DNA of 32,000 bases from contig DAOMZT010000001.1 in assembly GCA_035400625.1 (NCBI GenBank), positions 350,004 through 382,003 of the forward strand, in the 5' to 3' direction. Source of the stretch: an archaeon (GTDB lineage: Archaea; Iainarchaeota; Iainarchaeia; Iainarchaeales; CSSED10-239). The position numbers and the translations under genes are program-made. The notes below the pieces were generated by a model. The model saw only the letters and a program-made list of their open reading frames with translations, was not told the origin of the DNA and did no database searches. Of this stretch, positions 4,353-30,440 are shown one piece after another (position 1 is the stretch's first letter; the number at the start of each line of letters is the position of its first letter).

Positions 4353-4853
4353 ATGAATTTGCCAGTAACAAATCCAATTGTAAAGAATGCTCCATTAGAT
4401 AAGATTATTCCTGATAAGCTATTCTTAGATTTGTTGGATAAAAAATTTACTGGCTATGTTTATTTAATAATTGAGGGTAAATATAGTTTTGAAGAATCAA
4501 TATTAATCTTAAATGCTGGCAAAATAGAAGGTGCGATATATATAATAGATGGATATGATACTGAAATGTTTGGCAAAGAGGCAATTGACTATTGTTTAAA
4601 TTGTTATGGCGCAACAAACGGAAGATTAAATATTTTTGCATTAACTTCTGATCAAATAAAATTAATATTGTTATTTAACGACAAGATAAAATATGCTTGG
4701 CCAATCAAAAAAAGCAAAGACCTTTTAATATTTAGAAACATAAAATATAACGAAGCATTAATCTATAATTTATTAAAAGAAAAAATAGTAAAAAACAAAA
4801 CATCAAAAGATGTATTAAGTGATTTTAATTTAGATGATTTATTAAAAGAATAA
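4353..4853 (+). CDS. Hypothetical protein with PATAN/DUF4388-like pattern
   Basis: 166 aa. 'LFLDLLDKKFTGYVYLII...ILILNAGKIEGAIY...FGKEAIDYCLNCYGATNGRLNIFAL' follows the PATAN consensus layout (l..ll....tG.l.....iy...G.i..A....G.eA......G.f.f). The start lies 9 nt after the NYN gene stop. Confidence 0.45.
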   Translation: MNLPVTNPIVKNAPLDKIIPDKLFLDLLDKKFTGYVYLIIEGKYSFEESILILNAGKIEGAIYIIDGYDTEMFGKEAIDYCLNCYGATNGRLNIFALTSDQIKLILLFNDKIKYAWPIKKSKDLLIFRNIKYNEALIYNLLKEKIVKNKTSKDVLSDFNLDDLLKE

Positions 4854-4855
4854 AA

Positions 4856-5302
4856 ATGAGAAATATGGGTTCATTATCAAAATTATTTGCAAAGTTTTCA
4901 ACAAAAATACTAAATCTAGAAGATAAGCAAGGAGAAAATCCAATAGCTACATTATTAGTATACAAGCCAATATTTATACATTCTTCTGATTTGACTGATT
5001 TTTTACAAAAGTTAAGATTAAAACACCTTATCAATGACATTATTATCACAGATACTGATGGAATTGTCATAGGTAGTACAAACAAAGATATTAAAGAGGG
5101 ATTTAAAAGCGCAGCATTATACAATTATATTAACTCGGAAATAAAAGACCTCTCAATCATTTTAATAGAAGCAAATGGCTGGCAGATAATTTTTAAAAAT
5201 GAAGAAAAGGTTTATTTCATAAAAGCAAATGATGAATTGTCTAGACTAGAGGTTTTAACAATAGTTAAAGAAATAGAGAATTTTATAAAATGTATTGTTT
5301 AA
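4856..5302 (+). CDS. Hypothetical protein, possible Roadblock/LC7 (MglB-like) fold
   Basis: 148 aa, starting 3 nt after the previous stop. 'INDIIITDTDGIVIGSTNKDIKEGFKSAALYNYI' resembles the core Roadblock motif (v.d.dG..ia......e..aa). The assignment is weak. Confidence 0.35.
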   Translation: MRNMGSLSKLFAKFSTKILNLEDKQGENPIATLLVYKPIFIHSSDLTDFLQKLRLKHLINDIIITDTDGIVIGSTNKDIKEGFKSAALYNYINSEIKDLSIILIEANGWQIIFKNEEKVYFIKANDELSRLEVLTIVKEIENFIKCIV

Positions 5303-5343
5303 GATTATATTGTGTTTTTTAATATATTAAGAGAGTGAAAAGA

Positions 5344-6144
5344 ATGGGAGAAGTTTTTGCAATAGTTTCTGGCAAAGGGGGGGTTGGTAAAACCACCCTG
5401 ACTGGAAATTTAGGAATTGCATTAGCAGAGTTAGGATATTCTGTATTGTTAATTGATGCAGATCTAGCGATGGCAAATTTAAGTTTGTTAATGGGGCTTA
5501 AAACACCACCAATAACAATACATGACGTGTTGTTAGGTTCTGCGCCAGCCACAGATGCAATTTATGATGGCCCAAAAGGCACGAAAATATTGCCAGCAGG
5601 TCTTTCTCTTTCTTTTTATACAAGAGTAGATATTGAAAGGTTAGTTGCAGTAACAAATGAATTAAAATCCAAATTCGATTATATATTGATTGATTCTCCA
5701 GCAGGGATAGAAAAGAATGTTATTGCTGCTATGTCTGCATCTACTCAAATTATTTTAATCACTGAGCCAACAGCTCCATCTGTTGCAGATGCATTTAAAG
5801 CAAAGATTGTTGCTCAAAGACTTAATCAAAGAGTTTTTGGAGTAATTATAAATAAATATAGTAATACTAAAGGAGAAATTTCAGAAAACGAAATCATGAA
5901 AATGCTAGAGTTGCCATCATATGGCAAAATACCACATTCTGATGAAATTAGACAATCCTTCTTGTTAAAGAAGATAAAGCCACTTCTAGTACACAACCCT
6001 AATTGTTCTGCTGCAAATTCATTTAGAGCAATTGCAAGAAAGATAACAGGTAAAGAAACAGATGTTGTAAAAACAGAAAAAAAGAAAGGGCTGTTTTCTG
6101 GACTTTTCAAATCTTTAGGAAACATGTTTAAAAAGAAAAAATAA
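5344..6144 (+). CDS. minD: MinD/ParA-family P-loop ATPase with C-terminal amphipathic tail
   Basis: Deviant Walker A 'SGKGGVGKTTLTGNLG', 'LLIDADL' and 'ILIDSPAG'. The C-terminus 'KKKGLFSGLFKSLGNMFKKKK' looks like a membrane-targeting amphipathic helix. ATG 5344 is preferred over the GTG at 5335 used in the ORF track. Confidence 0.85.
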   Translation: MGEVFAIVSGKGGVGKTTLTGNLGIALAELGYSVLLIDADLAMANLSLLMGLKTPPITIHDVLLGSAPATDAIYDGPKGTKILPAGLSLSFYTRVDIERLVAVTNELKSKFDYILIDSPAGIEKNVIAAMSASTQIILITEPTAPSVADAFKAKIVAQRLNQRVFGVIINKYSNTKGEISENEIMKMLELPSYGKIPHSDEIRQSFLLKKIKPLLVHNPNCSAANSFRAIARKITGKETDVVKTEKKKGLFSGLFKSLGNMFKKKK

Positions 6145-6475: not shown

Positions 6476-7600
6476 ATGAACAAGATAATTTTAGCTTTAT
6501 ATTTTGGTAGTAATTTAGCAGAGAACGTTGCGTCTGATTCTAAACTCTCTAGTATTTTTACTTATAACAATCTAATTATTATGTTAATTGTTATGCTTGT
6601 TATATTGATTATATCCTTATTGGTATTTTTAATTATTCCAAAAATAAACAAAACTCCAAAAAAATATTATCAAAGATATTTAATAGTAAGAAAAGAATTA
6701 GATAAGATAGATGAATTATATGCAAGACGAAAACTTTCTTTTGAAAACTATGCGTTTACTCAATTTCATTATGCTAAAGAGTACGAACACTTGATTGAAT
6801 ATCTTTCTCAATTCCCTGAGTACAAAGATAAATTAAAGTCATATAAATTAAACTATTTAAGAACACAAGAACAACCAGACAAAAATTTATCAGAAGAAGA
6901 AAAAAAGAATGCAGAAATTATTAATTATTTTATAAGAGTTTTAGGTCCAGTTGCCCCTTACTATAGAAAGAATGAGGTTTATCAAGCGATATTAGATGAA
7001 AAATTTTCTAAAGTCATAGCTGAAGGAATAATAAAAGGATTAGAAAAAATTGGTGTTAAATTTAATAGTAAAGAGATATCTGAGAATCGTAAGGGTATTG
7101 AGCTGGTTGACAAATTATTATTAGATAAGCAAGATAAAATTAGACAAAAAGAACAAGAAAAACCAAAGAAATACACGATGCCAGATGTAATAGATAAATC
7201 AATATATTTATCTAGAAAAGCTGCACAAGAGAAAGAGAAACAAGAGAAAGAGAAAATTGTTAAACCAGTAGAACCAGAAAAACCAAATGAAGTTTCTAAG
7301 ATAGAGAATTTTGAGCCACAGATAGAAATCCGAGACGATTTTTTTGAATCAACTACAGATTCTATAAAAGTTTCTGAGCCAACAACTATATCATTAAAAG
7401 ATTTGATAAAGAAAGAATCCCAAAAACCAATGTTTGAAAAAATAACAACTGTTTCTAAATATCCAGAGGAGAGTAGTAAGCCCGCAACTAAAAAGGGGCT
7501 ATTTAAGTCTATAAAAAATATCTTTAAACCTAAAAGAAAATATCATTCCGTTTCTGAGATTAATGATATTTTTGAAAATATTGAAAAGAAATTAAGATAA
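6476..7600 (+). CDS. Hypothetical membrane-anchored Lys/Glu-rich protein
   Basis: 374 aa. It has one clear TM segment, 'LIIMLIVMLVILIISLLVFLII', then a charged, probably helical region. An amphipathic 'KKGLFKSIKNIFKPKRK' lies near the C-terminus. Confidence 0.6.
   Translation: MNKIILALYFGSNLAENVASDSKLSSIFTYNNLIIMLIVMLVILIISLLVFLIIPKINKTPKKYYQRYLIVRKELDKIDELYARRKLSFENYAFTQFHYAKEYEHLIEYLSQFPEYKDKLKSYKLNYLRTQEQPDKNLSEEEKKNAEIINYFIRVLGPVAPYYRKNEVYQAILDEKFSKVIAEGIIKGLEKIGVKFNSKEISENRKGIELVDKLLLDKQDKIRQKEQEKPKKYTMPDVIDKSIYLSRKAAQEKEKQEKEKIVKPVEPEKPNEVSKIENFEPQIEIRDDFFESTTDSIKVSEPTTISLKDLIKKESQKPMFEKITTVSKYPEESSKPATKKGLFKSIKNIFKPKRKYHSVSEINDIFENIEKKLR
7226..7255 (+). repeat. Perfect 2 x 15-nt tandem duplication inside a CDS
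   Basis: 'caagagaaagagaaa' occurs at 7226-7240 and again at 7241-7255, encoding QEKEK-QEKEK. Confidence 0.9.
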
Positions 7601-15519: not shown

Positions 15520-15575
15520 TTTTTGCTATACTTATTTAAATAATTGCAATTATATGATTTTTGAGGTTTTCATAC

Positions 15576-16157
15576 ATGAATAAAATGAAATCAATAATGT
15601 TAATATCTTGTTTTATATTATTTATTATCGCTCCTGTTTATGCATCAGCAATGCGTGGTGAAGCAATAAATAATCAAACTAAAGAGTGTGCCACTTATTT
15701 TCAAGGTGATGAATGCATGGACTGTGCGTTATCAGATCCCTGGATTGAACGAAAACACGGAGAACCTTGCCCAGAAGGATACAGAGAAATTAAAGATATG
15801 CAAGCACCTTCTATTTGTACGCCTATTCAAAATCAGTTTTGCTGTGAGGAATATCATTCTGGGGCAAGTGGCAATTGTACAAATCTTGTTATAAACAATA
15901 TTACAAAAGAATGTGCATTTGTTTTGGACATTAATAGTTGTGAGAAATTGCCAAAAAATTGGTTGCCAGTAGCATCTACTGAATATAAAAATTGTCCAAT
16001 AAGTTTAGAATATAAATGGTTAGATGATGTGTTAGTGTGTGATACCAAATCTACAAATTACAATAAATTCTATATGTTTGTTGTGATTGCAATTATAATA
16101 ATCTTAATAATGGGAGTTTGTCTTAAAAAATATAAAAAGGTTTTATGTCGTCAATAA
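15576..16157 (+). CDS. Cys-rich secreted protein with C-terminal TM anchor
   Basis: ATG 15576 is preferred over TTG 15561. It has a signal peptide 'MNKMKSIMLISCFILFIIAPVYASA', an ectodomain with 15 Cys by my count, a C-terminal TM 'FYMFVVIAIIIILIMGV', and a basic tail 'KKYKK'. Confidence 0.6.
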   Translation: MNKMKSIMLISCFILFIIAPVYASAMRGEAINNQTKECATYFQGDECMDCALSDPWIERKHGEPCPEGYREIKDMQAPSICTPIQNQFCCEEYHSGASGNCTNLVINNITKECAFVLDINSCEKLPKNWLPVASTEYKNCPISLEYKWLDDVLVCDTKSTNYNKFYMFVVIAIIIILIMGVCLKKYKKVLCRQ

Positions 16158-19254: not shown

Positions 19255-21909
19255 ATGAGAAAAGAATATTTGGTTAGTTTGTTATTTTTAGTTGCAATAG
19301 TTATTTCTGGAGTTTCTGCCGACCCTTTTGCAATTAATTATTATGTAAATACTGATAGTTCCCAAGAGTATCTTAATCTTCAATATGGAAACTATTATGA
19401 TAATGTTAGTTTAAGATTATGGCTACAAGCAACAGATGGCTATTCTAATGTGCCAGTTTATGTTTCTCCAAAGATTTATGGTCTTGATTCTTATGGCAAC
19501 CTTACTTACCTCTATTCTGTCCCTACTCAAACATATTATGCTTATTCAACACCTTATGAGTATGTCTATCCAAATGTCTTCTATCTAACTCCTGACTATT
19601 ATGGCTATGTGGTTAAGGTTTATGCAGAGGCAACAGGCTTTTACTATAACACTTACAGCTATGCTTATGTTTATCCAATAAATAATGCTCCTTATTATTA
19701 CTTTATAGAAGATACTCCTGCACACAATGATTTTGATTTTCCACAAAGCACAACTCCAAGTTGTTCAGACATTGTCCTTTCTGGTTCTCAAAATATCTAT
19801 CTAGATGAAGGAGAAAAGATGACTTATAGCCTTTATATTGAAAACGGAGCAAACGAAGATTTAGAGGTTGTTGATGTATATACAAGCAATCCAACAAAAC
19901 TAGATGTTGATGATATTGATTATCCTGATACTGTTCCTGACCTTTCAGTAAGAACAGTAAGAATCTATCTAGAAGCTGACTCAGTAAATGGAGATTATGA
20001 TTCTTCTTTTACTGTTACTGTTAAAGCAAGATATCCAGGTTCTTCAATATGTACAAAAACTTACAAAGTAAACTATAACATAAGTGAAGAAGATGAGGAT
20101 TATGAGGATGTTAGTTGTTCAGACCTAGATTTCTCCAACACAAGCTTTACAATTAATGATGACGAGACAAGCACAAGAAAAGTAAAACTAAAGAACAACT
20201 CATATGATTATGATTTTGAAATTGATGATATAACAATAAACAATAGAGATGGCTTAGATGCATATATAGAAGATGCACCAAGAGTTATTGATTATAGAGA
20301 TTATGAATATGTGGAAATAGAATTTGATGCTGATGACTTTGATTACGATATTACAAAATACTTGACTTTAAATGTAAAAGGTGCTTTTGTTGATGGCTCA
20401 CACGAGGTAAAAGAATGTACAAGAAAAGCAACAATAACTGTAAAGATTGAAGATGATGGCGATAACGATTCTGGTAACAATGAAACAAGCTGTAATGATA
20501 TTTCTCTTTACACAAGAGACATTAGCCAAGCAGAGAACAGCACAAATTATTTTTCTGAAAATAATGGTTTCTATATTTTAAATAATTCAAATAGGACCTT
20601 TACAATAACAAGCCTAAGTTTAAATGATAATTCTAGCTTTGTAGATATAAGCAATCTTAAATATTCCAAAACAATATCTTCAGGAAACACCAGCTCCTTA
20701 AATTTTACTTTAAAAACAAAAAATGTAAACACAACAGAATATGCAAGAGGCACATTATCTGTTGCAGGTAAATTTTCTGATGGCACAACCTGCAGTTCTT
20801 CAAAGATAGGTGTAAAATATTTTGATATAGTTGTAAACGATTCAACAGGAACAACCCAAACAACCCCTACAAACAACACCTCAAACTTTTCTGGAACAAG
20901 CTGTAATCTTGATATTGTTGCTCCATCTACTGTTTCAGTAAACAACAGACAAGAATCAATAAATGTTTATTTCAAGAACTATACAAGTAGGAACGGAAGA
21001 GTTGAAATAATCTCTAATGGCTTAACAACAAACCCAAGTGTTATTTTCCTAAGCGGTTATGATGATTTCTCACAAAACATTGCTCTTTCAAATTTCAATA
21101 ACCCAACAAGCATTACATATGTTGCTTATCTAAATGGCTGTTCTTCAAAATCTACCTTTACTAACATCATTAATAAAATTTCTGAATCTGACAGGATAAC
21201 TTTGGTTTCCTATCCAACTTTTATTAGTCCATTATCTGGCAATGCAAAGATTTCAGTAAATGTGAATAACAGCTTTACTGTTCCTAAAGAAGTAACTATA
21301 AAGTTTGCAGGTCTTCCAAGCACTTTTAGTTCCTCTCCCAAGTCAGTTACTATTTCATCACATGAGACCAAGCAAGTAGATTTGGAACTATCAATTCCAA
21401 AGAATGCTCAAAAAATTGATTATCAAGCATATATTGAGTTATATTCTGGCAATCTTTTAGTTAATAAATATCCAATAACAATTAGCCTATCTCCTGCAAT
21501 ATCGGAGATAACAATAGTTTCTAGTTCCAAGCAATCAGCATCTCAAGATAGAACATACACAATTACTTTAACAATAAAGAACAACACAAATAATATTCAA
21601 GAAGGAGTAGTTGATTTTGGCTTGCCTGACACTTATGTGATTGATGGTGAGAAAAACATCTCTCTTCTTCCAAACGAAGAGGTTACAAAAACCTACAAGA
21701 TTGTTTCTCCAACAAGATTAAGAGAAGACAAGGAAATAGACATAAAGATAAAAAATAAGGCAACAGGCAAAGAGCTAGCAAATGAAAAGATAACCTTAGA
21801 TTCAGGCAGAGCTCCATTAAGTGCTTTCTTTTCTTTAAGAAACACAAGCTTTATTCTTTTAGGTGTTGTTGCACTTATTGTTTTATTTTTAATTTTTAGA
21901 AAGAGATGA
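19255..21909 (+). CDS. Large cell-surface protein: signal peptide, Tyr-rich region, repeated beta-sandwich-like domains, C-terminal TM anchor
   Basis: 884 aa. It has 'ggag' at 19243-19246 and the signal peptide 'MRKEYLVSLLFLVAIVISGVSA'. Many N-x-S/T sequons are present. Four roughly 80-100-aa units are each bracketed by a Cys pair. The C-terminus is 'FILLGVVALIVLFLIFRKR'. Confidence 0.8.
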   Translation: MRKEYLVSLLFLVAIVISGVSADPFAINYYVNTDSSQEYLNLQYGNYYDNVSLRLWLQATDGYSNVPVYVSPKIYGLDSYGNLTYLYSVPTQTYYAYSTPYEYVYPNVFYLTPDYYGYVVKVYAEATGFYYNTYSYAYVYPINNAPYYYFIEDTPAHNDFDFPQSTTPSCSDIVLSGSQNIYLDEGEKMTYSLYIENGANEDLEVVDVYTSNPTKLDVDDIDYPDTVPDLSVRTVRIYLEADSVNGDYDSSFTVTVKARYPGSSICTKTYKVNYNISEEDEDYEDVSCSDLDFSNTSFTINDDETSTRKVKLKNNSYDYDFEIDDITINNRDGLDAYIEDAPRVIDYRDYEYVEIEFDADDFDYDITKYLTLNVKGAFVDGSHEVKECTRKATITVKIEDDGDNDSGNNETSCNDISLYTRDISQAENSTNYFSENNGFYILNNSNRTFTITSLSLNDNSSFVDISNLKYSKTISSGNTSSLNFTLKTKNVNTTEYARGTLSVAGKFSDGTTCSSSKIGVKYFDIVVNDSTGTTQTTPTNNTSNFSGTSCNLDIVAPSTVSVNNRQESINVYFKNYTSRNGRVEIISNGLTTNPSVIFLSGYDDFSQNIALSNFNNPTSITYVAYLNGCSSKSTFTNIINKISESDRITLVSYPTFISPLSGNAKISVNVNNSFTVPKEVTIKFAGLPSTFSSSPKSVTISSHETKQVDLELSIPKNAQKIDYQAYIELYSGNLLVNKYPITISLSPAISEITIVSSSKQSASQDRTYTITLTIKNNTNNIQEGVVDFGLPDTYVIDGEKNISLLPNEEVTKTYKIVSPTRLREDKEIDIKIKNKATGKELANEKITLDSGRAPLSAFFSLRNTSFILLGVVALIVLFLIFRKR

Positions 21910-21938: not shown

Positions 21939-22007
21939 AAAAAAAGAAGCATATAAAAAAGTATTGCCTAAATATATTTGTAGTTTTAAAATAGGGTGAG
22001 TGTAGCT

Positions 22008-23642
22008 ATGAGTAAGAAAGGGCAAGTTGCAATAGAAGTGTTGGTGTTAGTTGGCATAATAGTTATTGGAATGGTTATTTTTGGATTATTTTATATAGGC
22101 AAACACCCTGATCAAATTTCTGAAATAGATGAAGTAACAGAAGCTGGTATGGCAAGGTCTGTTATTAATTATTCTGATGTAACAACTCCATCTAGGATAG
22201 TTTGTGGAAATCAAATTTGCGAATCAGGAGAAACCCCTGCCAATTGCCCACAAGATTGTCAACCATCTTCAGGAAATCAAACTAATTGTGGAAATGAAAC
22301 CATAGATTCTGGAGAAGAATGTGATGGCCTAGATTTAAATGGCCAAACATGTATTACTCAAGGTTTTGATGGTGGTAATTTATCTTGTACTTCTAATTGT
22401 GATTTTAATACTAGTGCTTGTTATAATCTACCGCCATCTGAGTGTGGCAACGGTATTAGAGAAGGCACAGAGGAATGTGATAGGGATGATTTAAACAAAG
22501 AAACATGTGAAAGCAAAGGTTATCAATTTGGTACATTGTCTTGTTCTCGAGAATGTGAGTTTGATTATTCAAATTGTGGTTATGAGGGTGATAGTAATTG
22601 TTCAGTATTTAGTAGCAAGGGCTGGAGACCATACGATACCAATAATCCTACCTGGTATGTAAGTGGGCGAATGTCTACTTGGCCAGATAAAAATGCACTT
22701 TGGCTTTGCCCAAAAGATGATTGTACTCATATAACTGATTATTATTTTTTGTATAATTCTTTTAAGCTTTTTAAAGACACAAATGTAACAATATCTGCTC
22801 TTGGTGATGATGAGACAAAAGTATGGGTGTGGCCTGATAGAAATATCTCACGAGAAGAAGTAGTTATTCCAAAGCATGTTTGGACAAATGGTTGGACTTC
22901 TGGATCAATAATGTTAGAAGGCAGTGAAAGTGGAACTGAACATGCAATAGTTCAATTAATTTACGACACAAAACAAGTAGCAACAGGTGCTATTCTATCT
23001 GTTAGAGAATCAGATACTGACGAAGTTATCTTAAATACAATTTTAACTTCTGGCTGGCGTTATTTTAGCACAATGACACAACTAGAAGAAGAGAGATACT
23101 CTTCTGATAATGCTTGTTCAATAGTATATTCTGATCAAAAATGTGGAAATAACAAAATTGAAGGAAGCGAGCAATGTGATGGCACTGAATTAGGAGAATA
23201 TGGTGCACAAACCTGTAGTGATTATGATTCTTCATATTATGATGGAGAATTAAAATGTCATGAAAAATATTGTTATATTGACACCAGAAATTGTAAATCC
23301 AAAATAAAATTAACAGTCGCTCCTGCGTCAGGAACAACAAGAAGAAACAAAGACTTTTCAACAACTGTTTCTGTAACTGGGAAAAATGATGATGAATTTG
23401 GTTTGGTTGCTTCCATTTATTTGAAAAACACAACTACAGGAGAATATGAGCCAACAATAAATTGCAAGTATGTTTCAACAGGTGAATATAACGATACATT
23501 TGATTTAGGCGGATTTAAAATTCCAATAAACCGCAGTTATAGTTTTAATTGTAATAAAGCAGGAGAATATAAGCTTACTTTTACAGGGACAAACCAAGAA
23601 GATGTTGTTTCTGAAGCATCATCTATAAGAAAAATAACATGA
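22008..23642 (+). CDS. Giant pilin-like protein (class III signal peptide) with Cys-rich repeats and Ig-like C-terminal domain
   Basis: 544 aa from ATG 22008, with 'gggtgag' 8 nt upstream; the ORF track starts at GTG 21996. The N-terminus 'MSKKG|QVAIEVLVLVGIIVIGMVIFGLFY' fits the archaeal prepilin pattern. Three 'CGNxxIExGEECD' repeats and one short Cys knot follow. Confidence 0.75.
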   Translation: MSKKGQVAIEVLVLVGIIVIGMVIFGLFYIGKHPDQISEIDEVTEAGMARSVINYSDVTTPSRIVCGNQICESGETPANCPQDCQPSSGNQTNCGNETIDSGEECDGLDLNGQTCITQGFDGGNLSCTSNCDFNTSACYNLPPSECGNGIREGTEECDRDDLNKETCESKGYQFGTLSCSRECEFDYSNCGYEGDSNCSVFSSKGWRPYDTNNPTWYVSGRMSTWPDKNALWLCPKDDCTHITDYYFLYNSFKLFKDTNVTISALGDDETKVWVWPDRNISREEVVIPKHVWTNGWTSGSIMLEGSESGTEHAIVQLIYDTKQVATGAILSVRESDTDEVILNTILTSGWRYFSTMTQLEEERYSSDNACSIVYSDQKCGNNKIEGSEQCDGTELGEYGAQTCSDYDSSYYDGELKCHEKYCYIDTRNCKSKIKLTVAPASGTTRRNKDFSTTVSVTGKNDDEFGLVASIYLKNTTTGEYEPTINCKYVSTGEYNDTFDLGGFKIPINRSYSFNCNKAGEYKLTFTGTNQEDVVSEASSIRKIT

Positions 23643-23772
23643 ATAAAAAGTAACAAAAGTAAAGAATATCTTTTCAATTTCAAGAAAATTACCAATAACA
23701 AGCAAAGACAAGTAATCTTCTCTGTTTTTAAACATTTCTTTAATATTATATTTTAATTATTTTGGTGATTGA

Positions 23773-26403
23773 ATGATGGTTAAAAAAAAGAAAGCTCAGG
23801 TTGCTTTAGAAATATTGGTTATTTTTGGAATTCTTGTTATCGGTGCTGTTATTTTTGCATTGTTTTATTCAACTAATATTAGAAGCAAAGTAGACATTTC
23901 TTCAAATGTTCAGGGTAGCTATTCAGATATTGAAAAAAATTTACTAAGCGAAGATCCACAACAGCCAATAGAAATTTGTGGTAATGGTCGTTGTGGTCCA
24001 GGAGAAAACAGCGCAAATTGTCCTGATGATTGTGGTTATCCAAATTCACTTTGTCCAACAACCCCATTAAACATATCTGTTAAAATGATACCAAATGAAG
24101 GTGTACCAGCAGGTGCTCCTGGTCATAATACTTTTGATTTAAAAGTAAGTGCTATTAGACAACCAGGATATGATGATAAAGAAATAATTGTTAAAAAATT
24201 AAGAATAAAAAATACAATGGCCACTAATGCGATTTATTACAATAACAACAATTTACCATTAGATGGTGTTGAAATTGATAGCGAAATGAATATAAGCGCA
24301 GAAAATTATTTTAATTATACAATTTCTAATCTTTCAAGTACCCGTTCTGGAAGCTATCCATTTGAAGTTTTAGTTGAAGTTCCTGGTTGTGAGGGATTAG
24401 ATACAATTGGTTCAACAGTTGTTGATATAAAAGGTTTATCTGCAAGATTAAGCTTATATCCTGATGGGGGAAATTATCAAGATGAAAATTTTGGAGTTAA
24501 TGTAGACGTATTTGGTTATAATTCAGGTAGTAACATAAGTATTACAAATATATTTGTAGCAGATGCGCTAGGCAATTTACTTAATAACGTTTGTTCTTAT
24601 AAAAAAGAGAGAATACCTATTTCTGGTAAAAGTGTAGATTTATTACTTGATAAAAGAAATAATAATTATAATTATTTATTTACTAATAATTTTGCTTGTT
24701 ATCAACCAGGCGAATATAAGTTTATATTTACTTTACATGATAATGATGAAAACACAGATTATGATTATAATGCTACAATTTTTAAAAGTATAAAAGATCG
24801 TTGTTTATATTTAAGAAATGCAGGAGAAGGAACAAAATCAAATCCATATATAATTTCTACTCCTGGTGATTTAGATTGTATAAGATACAATCTAAGTAAA
24901 TATTTTAGATTAGGGGCAGATATAGATTTAAATCACGAACTTTTATCTGACAATTCAGAGTATTATTGGTATGATGATATATATGGTTGGAATCCGATAG
25001 GCACAATGGATGCGCCATTTACTGGTTCATTTGATGGTGCAGGCTATACAATACGAAATTTATATACCAGAAGAAACAATGTAGACCCAGTTAATGGGGT
25101 AATAACTCCTATATTATTTACAGGAGATATTTACAATTCTTTATTTTTAAATGTAAGTGATGCTAACTTTAATAATTTAAATTTATCTGGTGTAGATTTA
25201 AATGGTTGGCAATCAGGATCATTAGCTTATTATTCAACCAATTCTAATTTTAAAGACATACATGTTAATGGAGATGTAGTAAGTTATTATTTTGGTGGCG
25301 GAATAGTATCATATGCGCAAGATTCTAATTTTAGTGGTTGTTCATTTGATGGTAATTTAAATATAAAAGGTATGGGTGGCGGATTAATAGGAGAAGCAAA
25401 AAATATTATAATAAATAAGTCTACAGCAAACGCCAACATAATTGGCAAATATATGATTGGTGGGCTAGTTGGTGTGATTAGAGATTTTGATAATCTATCT
25501 TTGATTAAAGAATCATCTAGTTCTGGAATTATTAGTTATGGATCAGGGAGTATAGGGTGTATAGGTGGTTTGTGTGGTTCTTGTGCAAGTGTTATTGTAA
25601 ATAGTCATTCTGATGTTGATATATCAAAAGGCTATTTAAGTATAGGTGGTTTGTGTGGTTCTTGTGTATCAATAATAAACAGTTATGCTACAGGAGATAT
25701 AAATTCGTTAGAAATAACAAGTGGTATTTATGCGAGTGGACATTTACCTAATTATATAGGTGGTTTAGCAGGTGAAGTTTCAGGAGATGTAAAAAATAGT
25801 TATGCTACAGGAAATATAAATCTAATTTCACAACCAAATAACAATGCATTCCGTATTGGAGGATTAATTGGTGCAACTTCTGGTTTTTCTACAACTCCAC
25901 TAAGTGTTAGTAATTCTTATGCCAGAGGCAATATAACAATAAATGGAGTAGCAGAAGAGATTGGGGGGTTAATAGGTCATCCAATGGGATCGTTAAAGCC
26001 TCAAATTCTTAATTGTTATAGTACAGGAAATATAGCAATTTCAGGAGAAAATAGCTTAGTAGGCGGATTAATTGGTGGTAATAATGACGCAAATACAACT
26101 TCAAGTTATTGGGATACTCAAACTTCTGGCCAATCTACAAGCTACGGTGGTTTAGGCAGAACAACAGAAGATATGACTTATCCAGAATACCCAGAAACCT
26201 ATGAAGGTTGGGATTTTAAAAATATTTGGATAAACGATATGAAAAAAACAAATGATGGCTATCCGTATCTTAAGTTAAATATTGTAGGTCTGGAAAGAGG
26301 CAGGGATTTAATCCCTGATTCAGAGGATATTATTGCTTCTTTCCCATATATTTATATTTCAGAAGATGGAGAAACAATAGATCCTGATTTGATTAATAAC
26401 TAG
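23773..26403 (+). CDS. Giant pilin-like protein (class III signal peptide) with Ig-like domains and GLUG-motif beta-helix
   Basis: 876 aa, with 'ggtga' at 23764-23768. The N-terminus is 'MMVKKKKA|QVALEILVIFGILVIGAVIFALFY'. Nine 'GG(G/L)xG' GLUG-type motifs occur at about 27-35-aa spacing, for example 'IGGLVGV', 'IGGLCGSC', 'IGGLAGEV' and 'VGGLIGGN'. The terminal 'SYWDTQTSGQSTS' and 'NDGYPYLK' are typical of GLUG-repeat proteins. Confidence 0.8.
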   Translation: MMVKKKKAQVALEILVIFGILVIGAVIFALFYSTNIRSKVDISSNVQGSYSDIEKNLLSEDPQQPIEICGNGRCGPGENSANCPDDCGYPNSLCPTTPLNISVKMIPNEGVPAGAPGHNTFDLKVSAIRQPGYDDKEIIVKKLRIKNTMATNAIYYNNNNLPLDGVEIDSEMNISAENYFNYTISNLSSTRSGSYPFEVLVEVPGCEGLDTIGSTVVDIKGLSARLSLYPDGGNYQDENFGVNVDVFGYNSGSNISITNIFVADALGNLLNNVCSYKKERIPISGKSVDLLLDKRNNNYNYLFTNNFACYQPGEYKFIFTLHDNDENTDYDYNATIFKSIKDRCLYLRNAGEGTKSNPYIISTPGDLDCIRYNLSKYFRLGADIDLNHELLSDNSEYYWYDDIYGWNPIGTMDAPFTGSFDGAGYTIRNLYTRRNNVDPVNGVITPILFTGDIYNSLFLNVSDANFNNLNLSGVDLNGWQSGSLAYYSTNSNFKDIHVNGDVVSYYFGGGIVSYAQDSNFSGCSFDGNLNIKGMGGGLIGEAKNIIINKSTANANIIGKYMIGGLVGVIRDFDNLSLIKESSSSGIISYGSGSIGCIGGLCGSCASVIVNSHSDVDISKGYLSIGGLCGSCVSIINSYATGDINSLEITSGIYASGHLPNYIGGLAGEVSGDVKNSYATGNINLISQPNNNAFRIGGLIGATSGFSTTPLSVSNSYARGNITINGVAEEIGGLIGHPMGSLKPQILNCYSTGNIAISGENSLVGGLIGGNNDANTTSSYWDTQTSGQSTSYGGLGRTTEDMTYPEYPETYEGWDFKNIWINDMKKTNDGYPYLKLNIVGLERGRDLIPDSEDIIASFPYIYISEDGETIDPDLINN
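25560..25666 (+). repeat. 81-nt-period internal duplication with a 26-nt identical core
   Basis: 'tataggtggtttgtgtggttcttgtg' occurs at 25560-25585 and 25641-25666, exactly 81 nt (27 codons) apart. Both copies encode 'IGGLCGSC'. Confidence 0.9.
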
Positions 26404-26495: not shown

Positions 26496-26725
26496 AGTGA
26501 ATAGTTATTGGTTTTGTAGAAATCCTTTTTTAGTAAATTAATCTAGCAAATCAAAAATTTCTCGCAATTTCATTAATTAGTCCATTTCTCTGCGATTTTT
26601 GATAATATGCATTTACATCATGGTAATTTTATCGATGCGGGGTTTTCATAATAATGTGTGCAGTAAAAAACTCATGCATTTATAAATGGTTTTTTAAATA
26701 TATATATAATTTAGTAGGTGTAATA

Positions 26726-27679
26726 ATGAAAATTGGGATGTGTGGATTTGGAAGAATAGGTAGGCAAATATTTGAAGCACTGTTAAAAGAAAAATGTATC
26801 GATACCATATTTATATATGACCCCCAATTGTCTAAATCTAACTACGATTATTTATTACAATCTGAGTTGGGTCAAGATTATAATAAATTTAAATTTAAAA
26901 TCAACAAAGTAAAAATAATAAGCATAGAAAATAAATTTTATAATCAGATAAGGGATATAAATATATTAATCGAGTGCTCGGAAAAAATAGATCTGAAAAA
27001 AATATTACATTATAATTCTAAATTAAAAATAATTACAACTTATTTTTATAAAGACTCTGATGTAAAAGTAGCATTAGGTTACAATAACATAAAAAAAGAC
27101 GCGCAAATTATTTCGGGATTGACTTGCGATACAATTGCTATTTTGCCAGTGTTGAAAACATTTTTAGAGTTTGATATTCTTTTTTTATCCATTGCATCAA
27201 TTCATCCGGTCTTGTCTTATCAAAAACCGCTAGATAATTTGTATTTTGTTAATAAATCAATAGATTTAGCTAAAATAAGAGGTTTTGTAAATTGTGCAAT
27301 CCCAAGAGATACATCAATAGCTAACATTATTGAAATTGTTTGTCCGAATTTAAAAGGGAAGGTTTTTTCGTATCAATTGAGGATACCAACTACTGAAGTC
27401 ACATCTGCATTTATAACATTATCTACAAAGAAAAAAATAAATATTAATACTGTTAAATCAAAAATAAAAAAAAATAAATACTTGTGTTTTAATAAAGATT
27501 TGAAAATATCTAGCGATTTCGTAAAAGTTTCATTTTCTGCAGTAATTGATTTAAGGTTTTTTAAAGTTCATGAAAATAATTGTGCATTTTTAATGTGGTA
27601 TGATAACGAATATGGGTATTCTCAAAGAATTATAGATGTTGTTAAAGAAATTGGCGATGGTAGTGAATTTAATAAATAA
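26726..27679 (+). CDS. Divergent class I (bacterial/eukaryotic-type) glyceraldehyde-3-phosphate dehydrogenase family protein
   Basis: 317 aa from ATG 26726, with 'gtaggtg' upstream; the ORF-track start 26654 adds an implausible Cys/Phe/Tyr-rich leader. It has 'MKIGMCGFGRIGRQIF' (the NAD-binding GxGRIGR). 'IISGLTCDTIAILPVLK' aligns with 'SNASCTTNCLAP', keeping the Cys at 27125-27127. 'SIHPVLSYQKPLD' keeps the His at 27203-27205. The C-terminal 'WYDNEYGYSQRIIDV' also matches. Confidence 0.7.
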   Translation: MKIGMCGFGRIGRQIFEALLKEKCIDTIFIYDPQLSKSNYDYLLQSELGQDYNKFKFKINKVKIISIENKFYNQIRDINILIECSEKIDLKKILHYNSKLKIITTYFYKDSDVKVALGYNNIKKDAQIISGLTCDTIAILPVLKTFLEFDILFLSIASIHPVLSYQKPLDNLYFVNKSIDLAKIRGFVNCAIPRDTSIANIIEIVCPNLKGKVFSYQLRIPTTEVTSAFITLSTKKKININTVKSKIKKNKYLCFNKDLKISSDFVKVSFSAVIDLRFFKVHENNCAFLMWYDNEYGYSQRIIDVVKEIGDGSEFNK

Positions 27680-28436
27680 ACACAAATCTCAGTGTTTAAA
27701 AATTATAGATGTTTTAAAACGGGATTTAAAAAAAATAAAAGATATAAAATTAGCATTTGTAATAGGTTCCTATAACAAAAAATATTTTTCTATATGTAGC
27801 GATTTGGACATAATAATTATATTAGATGAAGAAAAATTAGATACAATTATTAAATTAAAAACAATGAGAACCAAATTAAAACAAGCATACAAAGTATCAA
27901 TTGATTTTATGATAAATAATATTAGAGAATTAAATATTAATTACCCAATGGGCGAACTAAATAATTTTGTAATAACAAATTTCAACCAAAACAAATATAC
28001 TGTTTTGGTAAATAATTTGTCAGAAAAACACATTTGTAATAAACCCCCTCTTGAATCTATAATTTTAGATAGCAGATATTATTTTAATAAATTACGGTTC
28101 ATATTATTGAATGAATCTTTTTTTATTAGAGATGTACAAAAAAAGGTAGTTGGATATGAAAAAACCAAAATATCTGTGTCTACATTATTTAATTTGGTGC
28201 GAAGGTATATTTTGTTAAAATGTAATTTGTATGTTGAAGAATATGAAGATGTAATAAACATAATTAAAAAAGAATCCTTGCAAGATTCAAAACAACTAGA
28301 GTTGTTTTGGAAATTAAAAATTAACAAACAAGAAATATCTAATGCACAGTTTAAAAAATTATATGACCTATCAAAAAAAATCTATTTTGAAATATTGCAA
28401 CGAAATTTAGGAGAATCAAGATGTCAGAAAAAATGA
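27657..28436 (+). CDS. Pol-beta-superfamily nucleotidyltransferase with helical C-terminal domain
   Basis: 259 aa from ATG 27657, overlapping the upstream gene by 23 nt. 'FVIGSYNKKYFSICSDLDIIIIL' (27765-27809) matches the minimal NTase motif G-S-x(9-13)-D-x-D. The size and two-domain layout resemble kanamycin-NTase-like proteins. Confidence 0.6.
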   Translation: MVVNLINKHKSQCLKIIDVLKRDLKKIKDIKLAFVIGSYNKKYFSICSDLDIIIILDEEKLDTIIKLKTMRTKLKQAYKVSIDFMINNIRELNINYPMGELNNFVITNFNQNKYTVLVNNLSEKHICNKPPLESIILDSRYYFNKLRFILLNESFFIRDVQKKVVGYEKTKISVSTLFNLVRRYILLKCNLYVEEYEDVINIIKKESLQDSKQLELFWKLKINKQEISNAQFKKLYDLSKKIYFEILQRNLGESRCQKK

Positions 28437-28981
28437 TTGTTTTTATAAATGGACCAACTGCTGTTGGTAAAACCACCGTTTCTAGAATTTTAAAAGAACA
28501 ACACGGGGCGACAATGGTAAGCATAAGTACCATTTTACGAGAGGAAGGCAAAAAAGTTGGTGCAAAAACAGCTGCAGATTTTGTTGAAAAAAACCTTAAG
28601 GGATCAATAGAAAAAAAATTGGCGTGTATTATAAATAATTTAAAACCAATTGTTGCAAAAAATAATCTTATATGTATTGAGAGTGCATATAATCAAATAG
28701 AAATTGATGCAATAAAAAAATATTTTGGGAAGAAAGGTTCTGTTGAATTTAAAGCCGTTTATTTAACTGCCGATTTAAATAAAAGAATAAATAGATTAAT
28801 GCGTAGAGAGAATATAAAAGATAGGCGGTGTGCTTTAATTCGCACATTATTAGTAAATGCCATTAGATCAAAAATGGGAATGACAAATATAAAATATGAT
28901 ATAGTTCATAAAAACAATTCAAAAAAAGCACCCAAAAAGTTAGTTAAAAAAATAATTAAGCCAACAAGGAGGAGGTTATAA
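28421..28981 (+). CDS. P-loop kinase-like NTPase (small nucleotide/metabolite kinase fold)
   Basis: 186 aa. The Walker A 'INGPTAVGKTTVSR' (28451-28477) sits right at the N-terminus, as in adenylate/shikimate/cytidylate-type kinases. It has a basic tail 'KKAPKKLVKKIIKPTRRRL' and overlaps the upstream gene by 16 nt. Confidence 0.6.
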   Translation: MSEKMIVFINGPTAVGKTTVSRILKEQHGATMVSISTILREEGKKVGAKTAADFVEKNLKGSIEKKLACIINNLKPIVAKNNLICIESAYNQIEIDAIKKYFGKKGSVEFKAVYLTADLNKRINRLMRRENIKDRRCALIRTLLVNAIRSKMGMTNIKYDIVHKNNSKKAPKKLVKKIIKPTRRRL

Positions 28982-28982
28982 T

Positions 28983-30440
28983 ATGAGAATATTATTTATT
29001 TACCCCTACATGCCTGCGGGAATGAATGTTCATTCAAAGAATGTGATGTCTGCTATAAATAAACACTACACAGATATGATTCTTACAAAATGGGAATATA
29101 AAGAATTTACAAATATTGATGATTATAATTTTGAGAATAAATCTTTAATTGATTTTATAATAAATAACAAAATAGATTTAGCACACATAGAATTTGACTT
29201 TGGATATTATGGATTTGATTTTGGTTGTGTTCCTTTTGTAGATTTAATTAACTTGTTTAAACAAAACAATATAGAGTACACATTATCGATACACAACCCA
29301 CCAGAAACATTTATACAATCTATGAAGGTTTTAAATAAAGATGTGAAAAAATTTAGTGAAGTTATTGATTATTTAAATAAAGAGCCAGATATACGAAAAA
29401 TAGTTCACAACCCACTATTTTTAGGGCATTTTGCACCTTTATTGCCTGTGAAAGAAAATTTTTACCAGGTTAGAGATTTAGATTTTAAAAATAAAGAAAA
29501 AATAATTATAGGCATTGTGGGATTTTTACATAAAGCAAAAGGATATGAAGATTTATTTAAATTTGCTAAAAAATACAAAGATTTATTTGTAAATCAAAAT
29601 ATATTAATTAAAGCTCTATTTTTTATGAGAGGAGATAGAAAAACACCTGACAGATTAGAATATAAAAAATTTATAGAAGGATTTAATGATAGTCATATAA
29701 GCATTCAAATTATTGATGAAAATTTAGATGCGTATTGTTCTTTTTTTAATGAAATAGATGTCGGATTTTCTACTCATTGTACATTAACCGAAAGTGCAAC
29801 AATAACTGATTATGTTTATTATGGGCTACCTGTTATTGCAAAAGAGCATTTTAATTTATTGTATTTAGATTTTATATTGATGTATAATAATTGGGACACA
29901 TTATATGGGTATATATCTAATATTAGAAAAACATTAATGGAATATGATTTTAATAAGCAACGTTCTTTTTGTAATATATTCAATTCAGAGTATGTTGCAA
30001 CTAAATATCGTTTAGCATTTATTAAAAATGGCATCTGTTCTTTTAAACATAGACCAGTTGTTGGTTGTCTGTGTTATTATAATGGAAAACAAATTTTATT
30101 TAAAAAAAATAACGTCCCTTTTTTTGATATAATGCACGGAGGTATTGAAAAAAATGAAACTGATAAAAAAGCTTTAGAAAGGGAAATTTTTGAAGAGTTG
30201 GGATTAACTTCAGATCAAATAATTATTAAAGAAAAAATTTGCTCTTTTGAATACTCAAAGCCAATCAAATTACAAATTAAAGTATCAAACAAAGGATCAA
30301 AAATGAATATATATTATGTTGAATTAAAAGAGTTACCTAAATTACCTACTATCGAGATAGAATCTTATAGTGTTTATTTTAAAGACTTATTAATTTACGA
30401 GAGTACAAGAGCTTTATTAAACACTATCTCTAAAACATAA
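28983..30440 (+). CDS. Fusion protein: GT-B (GT4-like) glycosyltransferase N-terminal region plus C-terminal Nudix hydrolase domain
   Basis: 485 aa, starting 1 nt after the kinase stop. The GT-B-like features are 'MRILFIYPY', 'IIGIVGFLHKAKGYEDLFKFAKK' and 'ESATITDYVYYGLPVIA'. A textbook Nudix box 'GGIEKNETDKKALEREIFEELGL' (GX5EX7REUXEEXGU) lies at 30138-30206. Confidence 0.7.
   Translation: MRILFIYPYMPAGMNVHSKNVMSAINKHYTDMILTKWEYKEFTNIDDYNFENKSLIDFIINNKIDLAHIEFDFGYYGFDFGCVPFVDLINLFKQNNIEYTLSIHNPPETFIQSMKVLNKDVKKFSEVIDYLNKEPDIRKIVHNPLFLGHFAPLLPVKENFYQVRDLDFKNKEKIIIGIVGFLHKAKGYEDLFKFAKKYKDLFVNQNILIKALFFMRGDRKTPDRLEYKKFIEGFNDSHISIQIIDENLDAYCSFFNEIDVGFSTHCTLTESATITDYVYYGLPVIAKEHFNLLYLDFILMYNNWDTLYGYISNIRKTLMEYDFNKQRSFCNIFNSEYVATKYRLAFIKNGICSFKHRPVVGCLCYYNGKQILFKKNNVPFFDIMHGGIEKNETDKKALEREIFEELGLTSDQIIIKEKICSFEYSKPIKLQIKVSNKGSKMNIYYVELKELPKLPTIEIESYSVYFKDLLIYESTRALLNTISKT

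Follow-up and report, generated by a model that had tools for sequence, protein, structure and literature searches.

The 32,000-nucleotide stretch analysed here (positions 350,004 to 382,003 of contig DAOMZT010000001.1 in assembly GCA_035400625.1, hereafter the window and numbered from its first letter) encodes two tandem giant surface proteins with pilin-type N-termini, and this arrangement is confirmed as a real feature. We call the 544-residue protein P1 and the 876-residue protein P2; a third protein of the same kind, encoded outside the window, is called P3, and P1 in this sense is distinct from ribosomal protein P1. On balance we consider it probable that P1, P2 and P3 belong to a lineage-restricted family of archaeal 'modular pilins', whose proposed architecture runs from an EppA/DUF361-type class III (prepilin-type) signal and alpha-1 helix through a variable linker of ~35 residues, often with a 4-cysteine knot, to interchangeable ectodomains of adhesin type. 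The window belongs to the chromosome of a DPANN-type archaeon with a tiny genome; its GC content is low (~30%), and its genes include those of PheRS, aIF5A, MinD, enolase, ribosomal L1/L10/P1, Hef/ERCC4 and S8e. Its close relatives, with proteins more than 90% identical, bear the label 'archaeon' or 'Candidatus Diapherotrites archaeon' and originate from activated-sludge and digester metagenomes.

Both genes are open reading frames (ORFs) on the plus strand, and their sizes and N-terminal sequences are those given by an earlier reading made from the letters alone (the sequence-only reading). Its start for P1 needs correction: position 21996 is a mechanically chosen GTG inside the ribosome-binding site, and the placement of a GGTGA motif indicates that the real start is the ATG at 22008. 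The start of P2 is either of two ATGs, at 23773 or 23776, and the 875-residue gene call at locus L007 takes the second. These and the other features are listed in Table 1.

The N-termini of P1 and P2 have every sequence feature of EppA/DUF361-type substrates, namely a short basic leader, Q at +1, E at +5 and a helical H-domain, and the same features, with a canonical QxSxE motif, are present in P3. The sequence-only reading, which had described a G/A-Q...E class III signal at both N-termini, is thus borne out by a FlaFind-type rule and by the published criteria, in which DUF361 pilins have a leader of 5–13 residues ending in G and conserved Q and E at +1 and +5 (PMC3875500). EppA needs Q at +1, and the characterised Epd pilin sites (cleavage shown by an arrow) are KG↓QV, KG↓QL, KG↓QI and RA↓QI; the predicted sites of P1 and P2 both match those of the Epd pilins, and that of P1 is identical to the processing site of EpdB/EpdC (PMC4371748, Table 1 therein). 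Every potential start in the six frames of the window was screened with the FlaFind-style rule ([KRDE][GA][ALIFQMVED][ILMVTAS]x3 and then a hydrophobic stretch), which selected the P1 and P2 ORFs alone. A stricter motif, [KR][GA]Q...E, occurs just twice among the 63,996 six-frame residues, the two cases being these N-termini. The hydrophobic stretch, with a mean Kyte-Doolittle value of 2.6 over 22 residues, lies in a helix of ~25 residues that is the sole hydrophobic segment of P1 and of P2, and no second transmembrane (TM) segment is present in P1, P2 or P3. Residues 3–32 of P1 were modelled as a helix by AlphaFold 2 (AF2), with block values of the predicted local distance difference test (pLDDT) of 80–93 from the single sequence and 52–72 with an orthologue alignment. 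The remainder of each protein is rich in cysteine (28, 17 and 10 residues in P1, P2 and P3, counted over the whole protein) and in N-glycosylation sequons (11, 14 and 12, respectively).

The positions of G, Q and E are invariant in the six full-length orthologues of P1, which are 50–100% identical to it, and the same holds far beyond them. A 34-column profile of leader plus helix (alignment A2), run exhaustively with HMMER against 1.84 billion representative proteins, recovered 102 clusters, every match lying at the extreme N-terminus, and none of the 102 lacks the G or A at -1, the Q at +1 or the E at +5. The residue at -1 is G in 63 clusters and A in 39, K stands at -2 in 91, and the leaders are mostly 5–11 residues long. 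Within the helix, S or A is found at +3 in 97 of the 102, L at +7 in 96, G at +16 in 93 and Y at +24 in 89; G+11, G+16, F+20 and Y+24 make up a pattern conserved across the family. Among 60 large members, most of which are 20–39% identical to the first sequence and two only 14%, no column other than Q(+1) and E(+5) is invariant. A loss of the G/A-Q...E positions in homologues, which the sequence-only reading had named as grounds for giving up its proposal, was therefore not observed in the orthologues or in any cluster.

Comparison with the curated class III model gave a more divided answer to the check that the sequence-only reading had proposed. The Pfam model PF04021 (Class_IIIsignal) aligns to the signals of both P1 and P2, with no other Pfam match at the N-terminus of P1 and no other on the signal and helix of P2 or P3, but its scores of 15.7, 11.7 and 18.4 bits for P1, P2 and P3 are below the gathering threshold of 23.7. 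The threshold is passed by two members of the wider family (26.5 and 30.8 bits), and 11 of the 60 large members match at E <= 0.01. The check by structure prediction was likewise answered in part, in that the helix at the N-terminus of P1 was found and a pilin-like globular domain after it was not. The comparative evidence, that is, the invariance of G/A, Q and E across the orthologues and the 102 clusters, is decisive in our view, and for this reason the assignment of the P1 and P2 N-termini as EppA/DUF361-type class III signals, although made from sequence, is well supported.

The members of the family differ widely in what follows the helix. Lengths of 101 clusters fall at or below 120 residues in 20 cases, at 121–300 in 19, at 301–600 in 35 and above 600, up to 1279, in 27. 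Several of the small members are complete genes of 54–85 residues in which only a short acidic tail follows the helix, and in members of 145–175 residues the linker leads to a single domain that is CHB_HEX_C-like or PKD/Ig-like. One 145-residue member shares a metagenome-assembled genome with a P1 orthologue (L004/L021), and members of 54–85 residues are seen in related organisms. The heads of the 60 large members were classified with Pfam as GLUG in 24, CHB_HEX_C or Fn3_assoc in 18, M26_N in 10 and DUF285 in seven, with PKD, Big_7, Flg_new, RCC1, Laminin_G_3 and DUF4215 heads in smaller numbers.

P1 and P2 share more than the signal. In a BLASTP comparison the region common to the two proteins is confined to the N-terminal 85 residues (44% identity, E 2e-13), which comprise the leader, a helix of ~27 residues, the variable linker of ~35 residues and a 19-residue module with four cysteines; the boundaries given for this module in both genes by the sequence-only reading proved exact. 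In the alignment of P1 orthologues its invariant positions are C66, G67, C71, E75, C80, P81, D83 and C84. The module is present in 36 of 101 family representatives and is missing in P3, which rules it out as the trait that defines the family, and the full cassette of helix, linker and module is rare, with three loci among 185,579 species genomes and four in a metagenome scan. The idea of a conserved cassette joined to different heads is confirmed and extended: a survey of relatives for the same N-terminus on other heads, as had been suggested, found at least four head architectures, in tandem arrays that differ between relatives.

The head of P1 contains the cysteine-rich repeats and the beta-rich domain that the sequence-only reading had attributed to it. 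After the signal and helix (residues 1–32), the linker (33–65) and the cysteine module (66–84), three units of DUF4215 type (the 'Myxococcus cysteine-rich repeat') are recognised by a local profile, two before and one after the beta-rich domain. The Pfam model PF13948 gave no match to P1 at E <= 1; the repeats of P1 retrieve more than 100 proteins annotated with PF13948, at E values up to 1e-92, and PF13948 is precomputed on the P1 orthologue P0005. The beta-rich domain, which is specific to this clade, possibly adopts a jelly-roll or carbohydrate-binding-like fold; its AF2 model has pLDDT of 51–69 in residues 241–320 and lower values in the flanks. Foldseek returned generic matches only, to beta-sandwiches and to GH2 sugar-binding and Ig-type domains (TM-score ~0.15), which we did not use as evidence of function. 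The domain has no match among PDB sequences, against which profile and sequence searches returned nothing useful. The C-terminal sandwich of P1 is homologous to the Ig-like domain of a P2-like protein in locus L014 (E 5.9e-09) and gives a marginal match to residues 304–327 of P2 (E 0.011).

In P2 the expected GLUG region was found by Pfam, with PF07581 (Glug) matching in three stretches at E 7.4e-14 and 51.6 bits against a gathering threshold of 20.5 bits; a weak match was obtained for PF05342 (M26_N, E 0.0069) and another match for the NCBIfam model ZmpA (E 3.4e-04 over residues 455–529). The label 'Ig-like' for residues ~95–340 is plausible. Solute-binding-protein families were absent from P1 and P2 (Pfam and NCBIfam) and from the 60 large relatives (Pfam), and the bacterial pilin N-terminal models in Pfam and NCBIfam, including that of the prepilin N-methylation motif (IPR012902), did not match P1 or P2.

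We propose that these proteins would work in the following way. The basic leader and the hydrophobic helix would place the protein in the membrane so that its head lies outside, and a prepilin peptidase specific for Q(+1) would cleave behind the G or A at -1. The freed helix, with its glutamate at +5, would then serve a type IV pilus-like machinery (of Epd/Tad type, 'system 1') as the handle for presenting the head on the cell surface, either as a low-abundance or tip subunit of a filament made of helix-only mini-pilins with the same helix, or within a short pseudopilus. The heads (GLUG beta-helix, DUF4215 cysteine repeats and beta-sandwiches) would attach to surfaces, glycans or partner cells. 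Arguments for polymerisation are that some members consist of little more than the helix and that the helix is strongly conserved. The sequence-only reading had described P1 and P2 as filament-displayed or membrane-tethered adhesins of a host-dependent archaeon; filament display, adhesin function and host dependence may each apply and are treated here as predictions. A more specific version, in which one Epd/Tad-like filament of 54–85-residue mini-pilins serves as a shared display scaffold for a 'library' of interchangeable giant heads, all with the same Q(+1)/E(+5) helix and kept in fast-evolving arrays beside an archaeosortase/S-layer module, is in our judgement unlikely.

Several observations weigh against modular pilins. 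P1 and P2 fall short of the PF04021 gathering threshold, as noted above, and all NCBIfam matches to their N-termini are sub-threshold. The helix is followed by the variable linker and the 19-residue cysteine module, with no globular pilin domain behind it. Heads of 450–800 residues could not be packed along the body of a filament, which leaves a tip or other rare position at best, and 62 of the 101 clusters exceed 300 residues, which are many heads for one filament tip. The models of the P1 head are poor (AF2 mean pLDDT 35 from the single sequence, where only the helix was confident, and 47 with the six-orthologue alignment), so that the binding function is read from domain names alone. Finally, no T2SSE/VirB11-type ATPase, TadC/FlaJ platform protein or A24 peptidase was found in the window and 10 kb on either side of it (~52 kb), nor in the sequence that flanks five related arrays or pilin loci; for the window itself the family scans agree with the sequence-only reading, which had seen no such genes there. 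The last point carries little weight, because in Methanococcus the pilin genes likewise lie in at least four loci apart from the machinery (PMC3875500).

The explanation that competes best with modular pilins is that the proteins are processed and not polymerised, the helix being an N-terminal membrane anchor or the basis of a bindosome-like envelope layer without any filament. Sulfolobus sugar-binding proteins employ their class III signals in such a manner and are larger than pilins by a factor of at least four (PMC4371748), and binding proteins that bear class III signal peptides (SPIII) occur widely (bioRxiv 10.64898/2026.04.22.720090). The predominance of large members fits such a membrane tether at least as well as it fits a filament tip; the missing globular pilin domain and the lack of machinery near any array examined are also on its side, and the arrays stand in an envelope-protein neighbourhood, beside a C-terminally anchored protein of ~900 residues and an archaeosortase. 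On the other hand, the same helix is found on complete headless proteins of 54–85 residues, which are sensible as filament subunits and not as anchors, and E at +5 together with G+11, G+16, F+20 and Y+24 is conserved far beyond the needs of a simple anchor. Even the bindosome, moreover, needs a dedicated PilB/PilC pair (PMC4371748). We regard processing without polymerisation as possible, if rather doubtful.

Much less probable is an ordinary uncleaved signal anchor, that is, a type II membrane protein in which the G/A-Q...E pattern reflects helix packing or the history of the lineage. One TM helix at the N-terminus, flanked by basic residues, does fit the positive-inside rule of signal anchors, and the sub-threshold PF04021 scores of P1 and P2 and the lack of a peptidase gene in the ~52 kb examined also speak for this explanation. 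It does not readily account for a pattern kept in 102 of 102 clusters at such low identities, for leader lengths that group at 5–11 residues like those of proven EppA substrates (PMC3875500), for the two family members that pass the curated model, or for an acidic residue five positions into a membrane helix, which would be unusual in an anchor and is a hallmark feature of type IV pilins (PMC4371748). A Sec (class I) signal cut by signal peptidase I, yielding soluble secreted proteins, is the least credible of the explanations considered, for although P1 and P2 are clearly extracytoplasmic, with their many cysteines and sequons, and neighbouring large proteins (884, 972 and 656 residues) carry classical Sec-type signals, the hydrophobic stretch of ~25 residues is too long for a class I h-region and holds a conserved charged glutamate, no small-x-small motif follows it, and the conserved G/A-Q precedes it instead of trailing it. 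It is the invariant G/A-Q...E ahead of a 25-residue helix that makes both the uncleaved anchor and the Sec signal unlikely.

Archaeal type IV pili have been connected in the literature with KaiC-like ATPases. In three relatives the gene of a short class III pilin (84, 145 or 147 residues) divergently adjoins that of a conserved 236-residue KaiC-type ATPase (PF06745; L015 748-1975, L021 3111-4373 and L022 273-1530), and the same ATPase is found without a pilin neighbour in another lineage (L023–L029). This ATPase was followed as a guide to the corresponding locus of the present genome; no match could be assigned to this genome, and the best candidate, P0286, belongs to another lineage and has no adjacent pilin.

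The closest known counterparts of the signal and helix are the PF04021 pilins of Methanococcus maripaludis (EpdA–E and MMP1685), which have the same basic leader to G or A, Q at +1, E at +5 and hydrophobic helix. The likeness extends to the KG↓QV string of P1, to the helix-only mini-pilins of the family, whose 54–85-residue members share the design of the 74-residue Methanococcus major pilin and of Flp pilins, and to pilin genes scattered away from the machinery. The globular domain is also missing in the Epd major pilin and in Tad/Flp pilins (bioRxiv 10.64898/2026.04.22.720090). Unlike the Methanococcus pilins, P1 and P2 have multi-domain heads and reach 544 and 876 residues (up to 1279 in the family), lie under the Pfam gathering score, belong to a DPANN lineage (labelled Diapherotrites) and are only predicted to be processed. 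The sequence-only reading had set their size against characterised pilins of roughly 130–200 residues, and this contrast was overstated: the characterised Methanococcus pilins have 67–156 residues, DUF361 proteins of 200–299 residues are known (PMC3875500), and much larger proteins with class III signals are established in the bindosome subunits of Sulfolobus and the 'relatively large pilins' of Haloferax (PMC4371748).

The modular design as a whole is more like that of the bacterial modular type IV pilins, such as PilB and PilC of S. sanguinis (Raynaud et al. 2021, PMC8179133), in which a signal and helix act as 'carrier' and are connected by a linker to an 'effector' of adhesin or lectin type. 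The bacterial proteins comprise many architectures, including one of 860 residues in a candidate-phyla bacterium, and have been proposed to sit at the filament tip (PMC8179133). By the criterion used for them, a signal and helix with a linked domain that is not specific to pilus biology, P2 with its GLUG region and P1 with its DUF4215-type repeats and beta-sandwich count as modular pilins. They differ in that the bacterial proteins keep a globular pilin module and IPR012902, whereas the pilin module of P1 and P2 is the helix alone, as in Flp- and Epd-like pilins, and in the predicted peptidase specificity, which is archaeal (+1 Q). The bacterial survey shows no archaeal family of such a kind (PMC8179133).

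With the bindosome and other SPIII-bearing binding proteins P1 and P2 have in common a large non-pilin ectodomain behind a class III signal; the surface localisation of the bindosome depends on PibD and the PilB/PilC pair (PMC4371748). P1 and P2 differ from these proteins in that their heads have no solute-binding-protein domain in Pfam and their signal, with Q+1 and E+5, is of EppA type and not PibD type. Large beta- or Ig-rich proteins are also found in archaeal type IV filament (TFF) loci, among them the DUF2341/PilY-like proteins of system 1 and the Ig-rich arCOG05616, and some of these have SPIII signals and were proposed to give adhesive specificity (Makarova 2016 PMC4858521; Sivabalasarma & Albers 2026). 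The TFF-locus proteins are encoded within machinery loci and have other domains, while the P1/P2 family is encoded in separate variable arrays beside an archaeosortase and carries GLUG, DUF4215 and CHB_HEX_C heads. The only NCBIfam model that consistently matches the N-termini of the family is TIGR04205, for a class III protein associated with archaeosortase D and PIP-CTERM. In both cases a gene for a class III signal protein lies near an archaeosortase gene, but the scores of the family are 12–28 bits against a cut-off of 65, the sortase is not ArtD (17.9 against a cut-off of 125), and the neighbouring ~900-residue protein ends in FFSL/FFTL-TM-RKR, unlike PIP-CTERM proteins.

All cassette loci are at one syntenic site, where the genes for ribosomal L10/P1, Hef, ERCC4, S8e, an archaeosortase-family protein and the ~900-residue protein stand in this order, with the class III array following downstream. 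The archaeosortase-family gene occupies the same place relative to the array in L003, L012, L018 and L030, and the order of sortase, big protein and class III array is kept in four lineages. The sortase, with 184 residues, gives weak matches only to ArtA, ArtD and 'pacearchaeosortase'; it forms the syntenic context of the array, and a functional link between them is putative. The 884-residue protein is likely a sortase substrate or an S-layer-like protein. No curated C-terminal sorting (CTERM) model matches it, and its end (SAFFSL, TM helix, RKR) looks like an undescribed C-terminal sorting signal (FFSL/FFTL-CTERM).

The class III genes at this site vary in number, from two to five per tandem array, and in kind. 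The present window has P1 and P2, with P3 ~7 kb farther on; L012 has four tandem genes, namely the P1 orthologue, two genes with CHB_HEX_C and GLUG heads and the P2 orthologue; L030 has four in tandem and a fifth after two metalloprotease genes; L018, from a distant relative, has a 153-residue class III protein with a CHB_HEX_C domain and a 68-residue mini-pilin; and in L014 a divergent cassette is joined to an Ig plus GLUG head. The head swapping suggested by the sequence-only reading is supported in this form, as gain and loss of genes and shuffling of domains within a hot spot. An origin as a mobile element or provirus was rejected, the array being embedded in housekeeping synteny (L10/P1, Hef, ERCC4 and S8e) conserved in four lineages. 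P3, which has Ig-like domains, is flanked by a 972-residue M6-like metalloprotease with CHB_HEX_C repeats and a 656-residue Hint-domain protein, and the surface-protein island thus reaches beyond the window.

Within this island, positions 26654–30440 of the window encode a GAPDH-like protein, a nucleotidyltransferase, an AAA_18 kinase-like protein and a NUDIX fusion, at a GC content of 0.24–0.27 against 0.30–0.36. The four-gene block is missing in a 96%-identical strain (L011), in which P2 is directly followed by the metalloprotease and P3, and as judged from this comparison it is a strain-level insertion or deletion. At positions 40-7135 of L014, a GLUG protein of more than 679 residues and a 1550-residue protein (N-terminal TM helix, RCC1 repeats and CHB_HEX_C-like domains) adjoin the gene with the divergent cassette, which is further evidence that such arrays gather giant surface proteins. 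An envelope protein of 198 residues is encoded 5' of the sortase region (15561–16157, plus strand); it has an N-terminal signal, many cysteines and a C-terminal TM helix with a basic tail, and matches no family. Farther away, at positions 4353–6144 (plus strand), two small uncharacterised genes (166 and 148 residues) lie directly 5' of that of an archaeal MinD (TIGR01969, 260 bits), after which a 374-residue protein with a TM helix and a coiled coil is encoded at 6476–7600, and this region may be a cell-division or positioning module.

Table 1. Features of the P1/P2 region and of its neighbours at the same site; positions are those of the window unless a locus is named, and arrows mark predicted cleavage.
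Feature	Position	Strand	Basis or remark
Archaeosortase/exosortase-family gene, 184 aa	17052..17606	+	TIGR04178, 36.7 bits (cut-off 23)
884-aa protein with Sec-type signal, ending ...SAFFSLRNTSFILLGVVALIVLFLIFRKR (motif, TM helix, basic tail)	19255..21909	+	Directly 5' of class III array in all relatives
GGTGA Shine-Dalgarno-like motif, 8 nt 5' of P1 ATG	21995..21999	+	Sequence read
P1 gene, class III-signal modular surface protein, 544 aa	22008..23642	+	ORF; deposited gene call also 544 aa
P1 leader MSKKG, 5 aa; predicted prepilin-peptidase cut after G5, KG↓QV	22008..22022	+	FlaFind-type rule, orthologue alignment
P1 alpha-1 helix, mature residues 1–27, QVAIEVLVLVGIIVIGMVIFGLFYIGK, +1 Q, +5 E	22023..22103	+	AF2, Kyte-Doolittle, PF04021 over residues 3–26
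P1 4-Cys mini-module CGNQICESGETPANCPQDC, residues 66–84	22203..22259	+	Alignment, motif scan
P1 two DUF4215-type units, residues 92–140 and 145–190	22281..22577	+	Local profile, 3.7e-28 and 1.6e-15
P1 clade-specific beta-rich domain, residues 195–372	22590..23123	+	Seen in P1 orthologues only
P1 third DUF4215-type repeat, residues 378–429	23139..23294	+	Local profile, 2.3e-08
P1 C-terminal beta-sandwich (Ig-like), residues 430–544	23295..23639	+	AF2 pLDDT 74–86 over ~450–530
GGTGA Shine-Dalgarno-like motif 5' of both candidate P2 ATGs (23773, 23776)	23764..23768	+	Sequence read
P2 gene, class III-signal modular surface protein, 876 aa	23773..26403	+	ORF; NCBI name 'GLUG motif-containing protein' (HPV66221.1)
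P2 leader MMVKKKKA, 8 aa (7 from second ATG); predicted cut KA↓QV	23773..23796	+	FlaFind-type rule
P2 alpha-1 helix QVALEILVIFGILVIGAVIFALFYSTN, +1 Q, +5 E	23797..23877	+	BLASTP against P1, hydropathy, PF04021 over residues 6–29
P2 4-Cys mini-module CGNGRCGPGENSANCPDDC, residues 69–87	23977..24033	+	Alignment, motif scan
P2 two presumed Ig-like beta domains, residues ~95–340	24055..24792	+	Weak motif match to P1 C-terminal sandwich; no Pfam match
P2 GLUG-repeat/M26_N-like region, presumed beta-helix, residues ~345–790	24805..26142	+	PF07581, PF05342, NCBIfam ZmpA
P3, 477 aa, ~7 kb 3' of P2, outside the window	L006 14661-16094 (~window 33643-35076)		Class III signal KKKA↓QVSVEALILVG

Large non-pilin proteins with class III signals, adhesin-like proteins of TFF loci and bacterial modular pilins are all established, and the present family is a useful lead and no new principle or mechanism. 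In the literature we found no description of an archaeal helix-only (Flp/Epd-type) pilin module on dozens of multi-domain heads of up to ~1300 residues, nor of an arrangement of such genes as variable arrays next to an archaeosortase, and we found no FlaFind-type analysis of DPANN, no paper that names both having turned up. Members of the family at present carry the annotation 'hypothetical' or the name of a head domain ('GLUG motif-containing'), and the pattern K-K-[GA]↓Q-x-[SA]-x-E-x-L...G...G...F...Y provides a search rule for them. If they are modular pilins, an idea documented so far in bacteria would be extended to archaea in a stripped-down form, with nothing but the helix as carrier.

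DPANN archaea are believed to need contact with other cells. The presence of the same polymerisation helix on at least 60 different large proteins of adhesin type therefore makes these proteins concrete candidates for attachment molecules. TFF loci of system 1/Epd type with a dedicated peptidase have been reported in DPANN (bioRxiv 10.64898/2026.04.22.720090), and for the DPANN genomes with Tad-like clusters in which 'no pilins annotated' was noted, the helix-only members of 54–85 residues supply candidate pilins (PMC9563170). Should a filament of such mini-pilins indeed be a shared display scaffold for the heads, the turnover of heads would set the surfaces and partner cells to which the organism can attach, and the arrays would be an archaeal, pilus-based counterpart of phase-variable adhesin repertoires.

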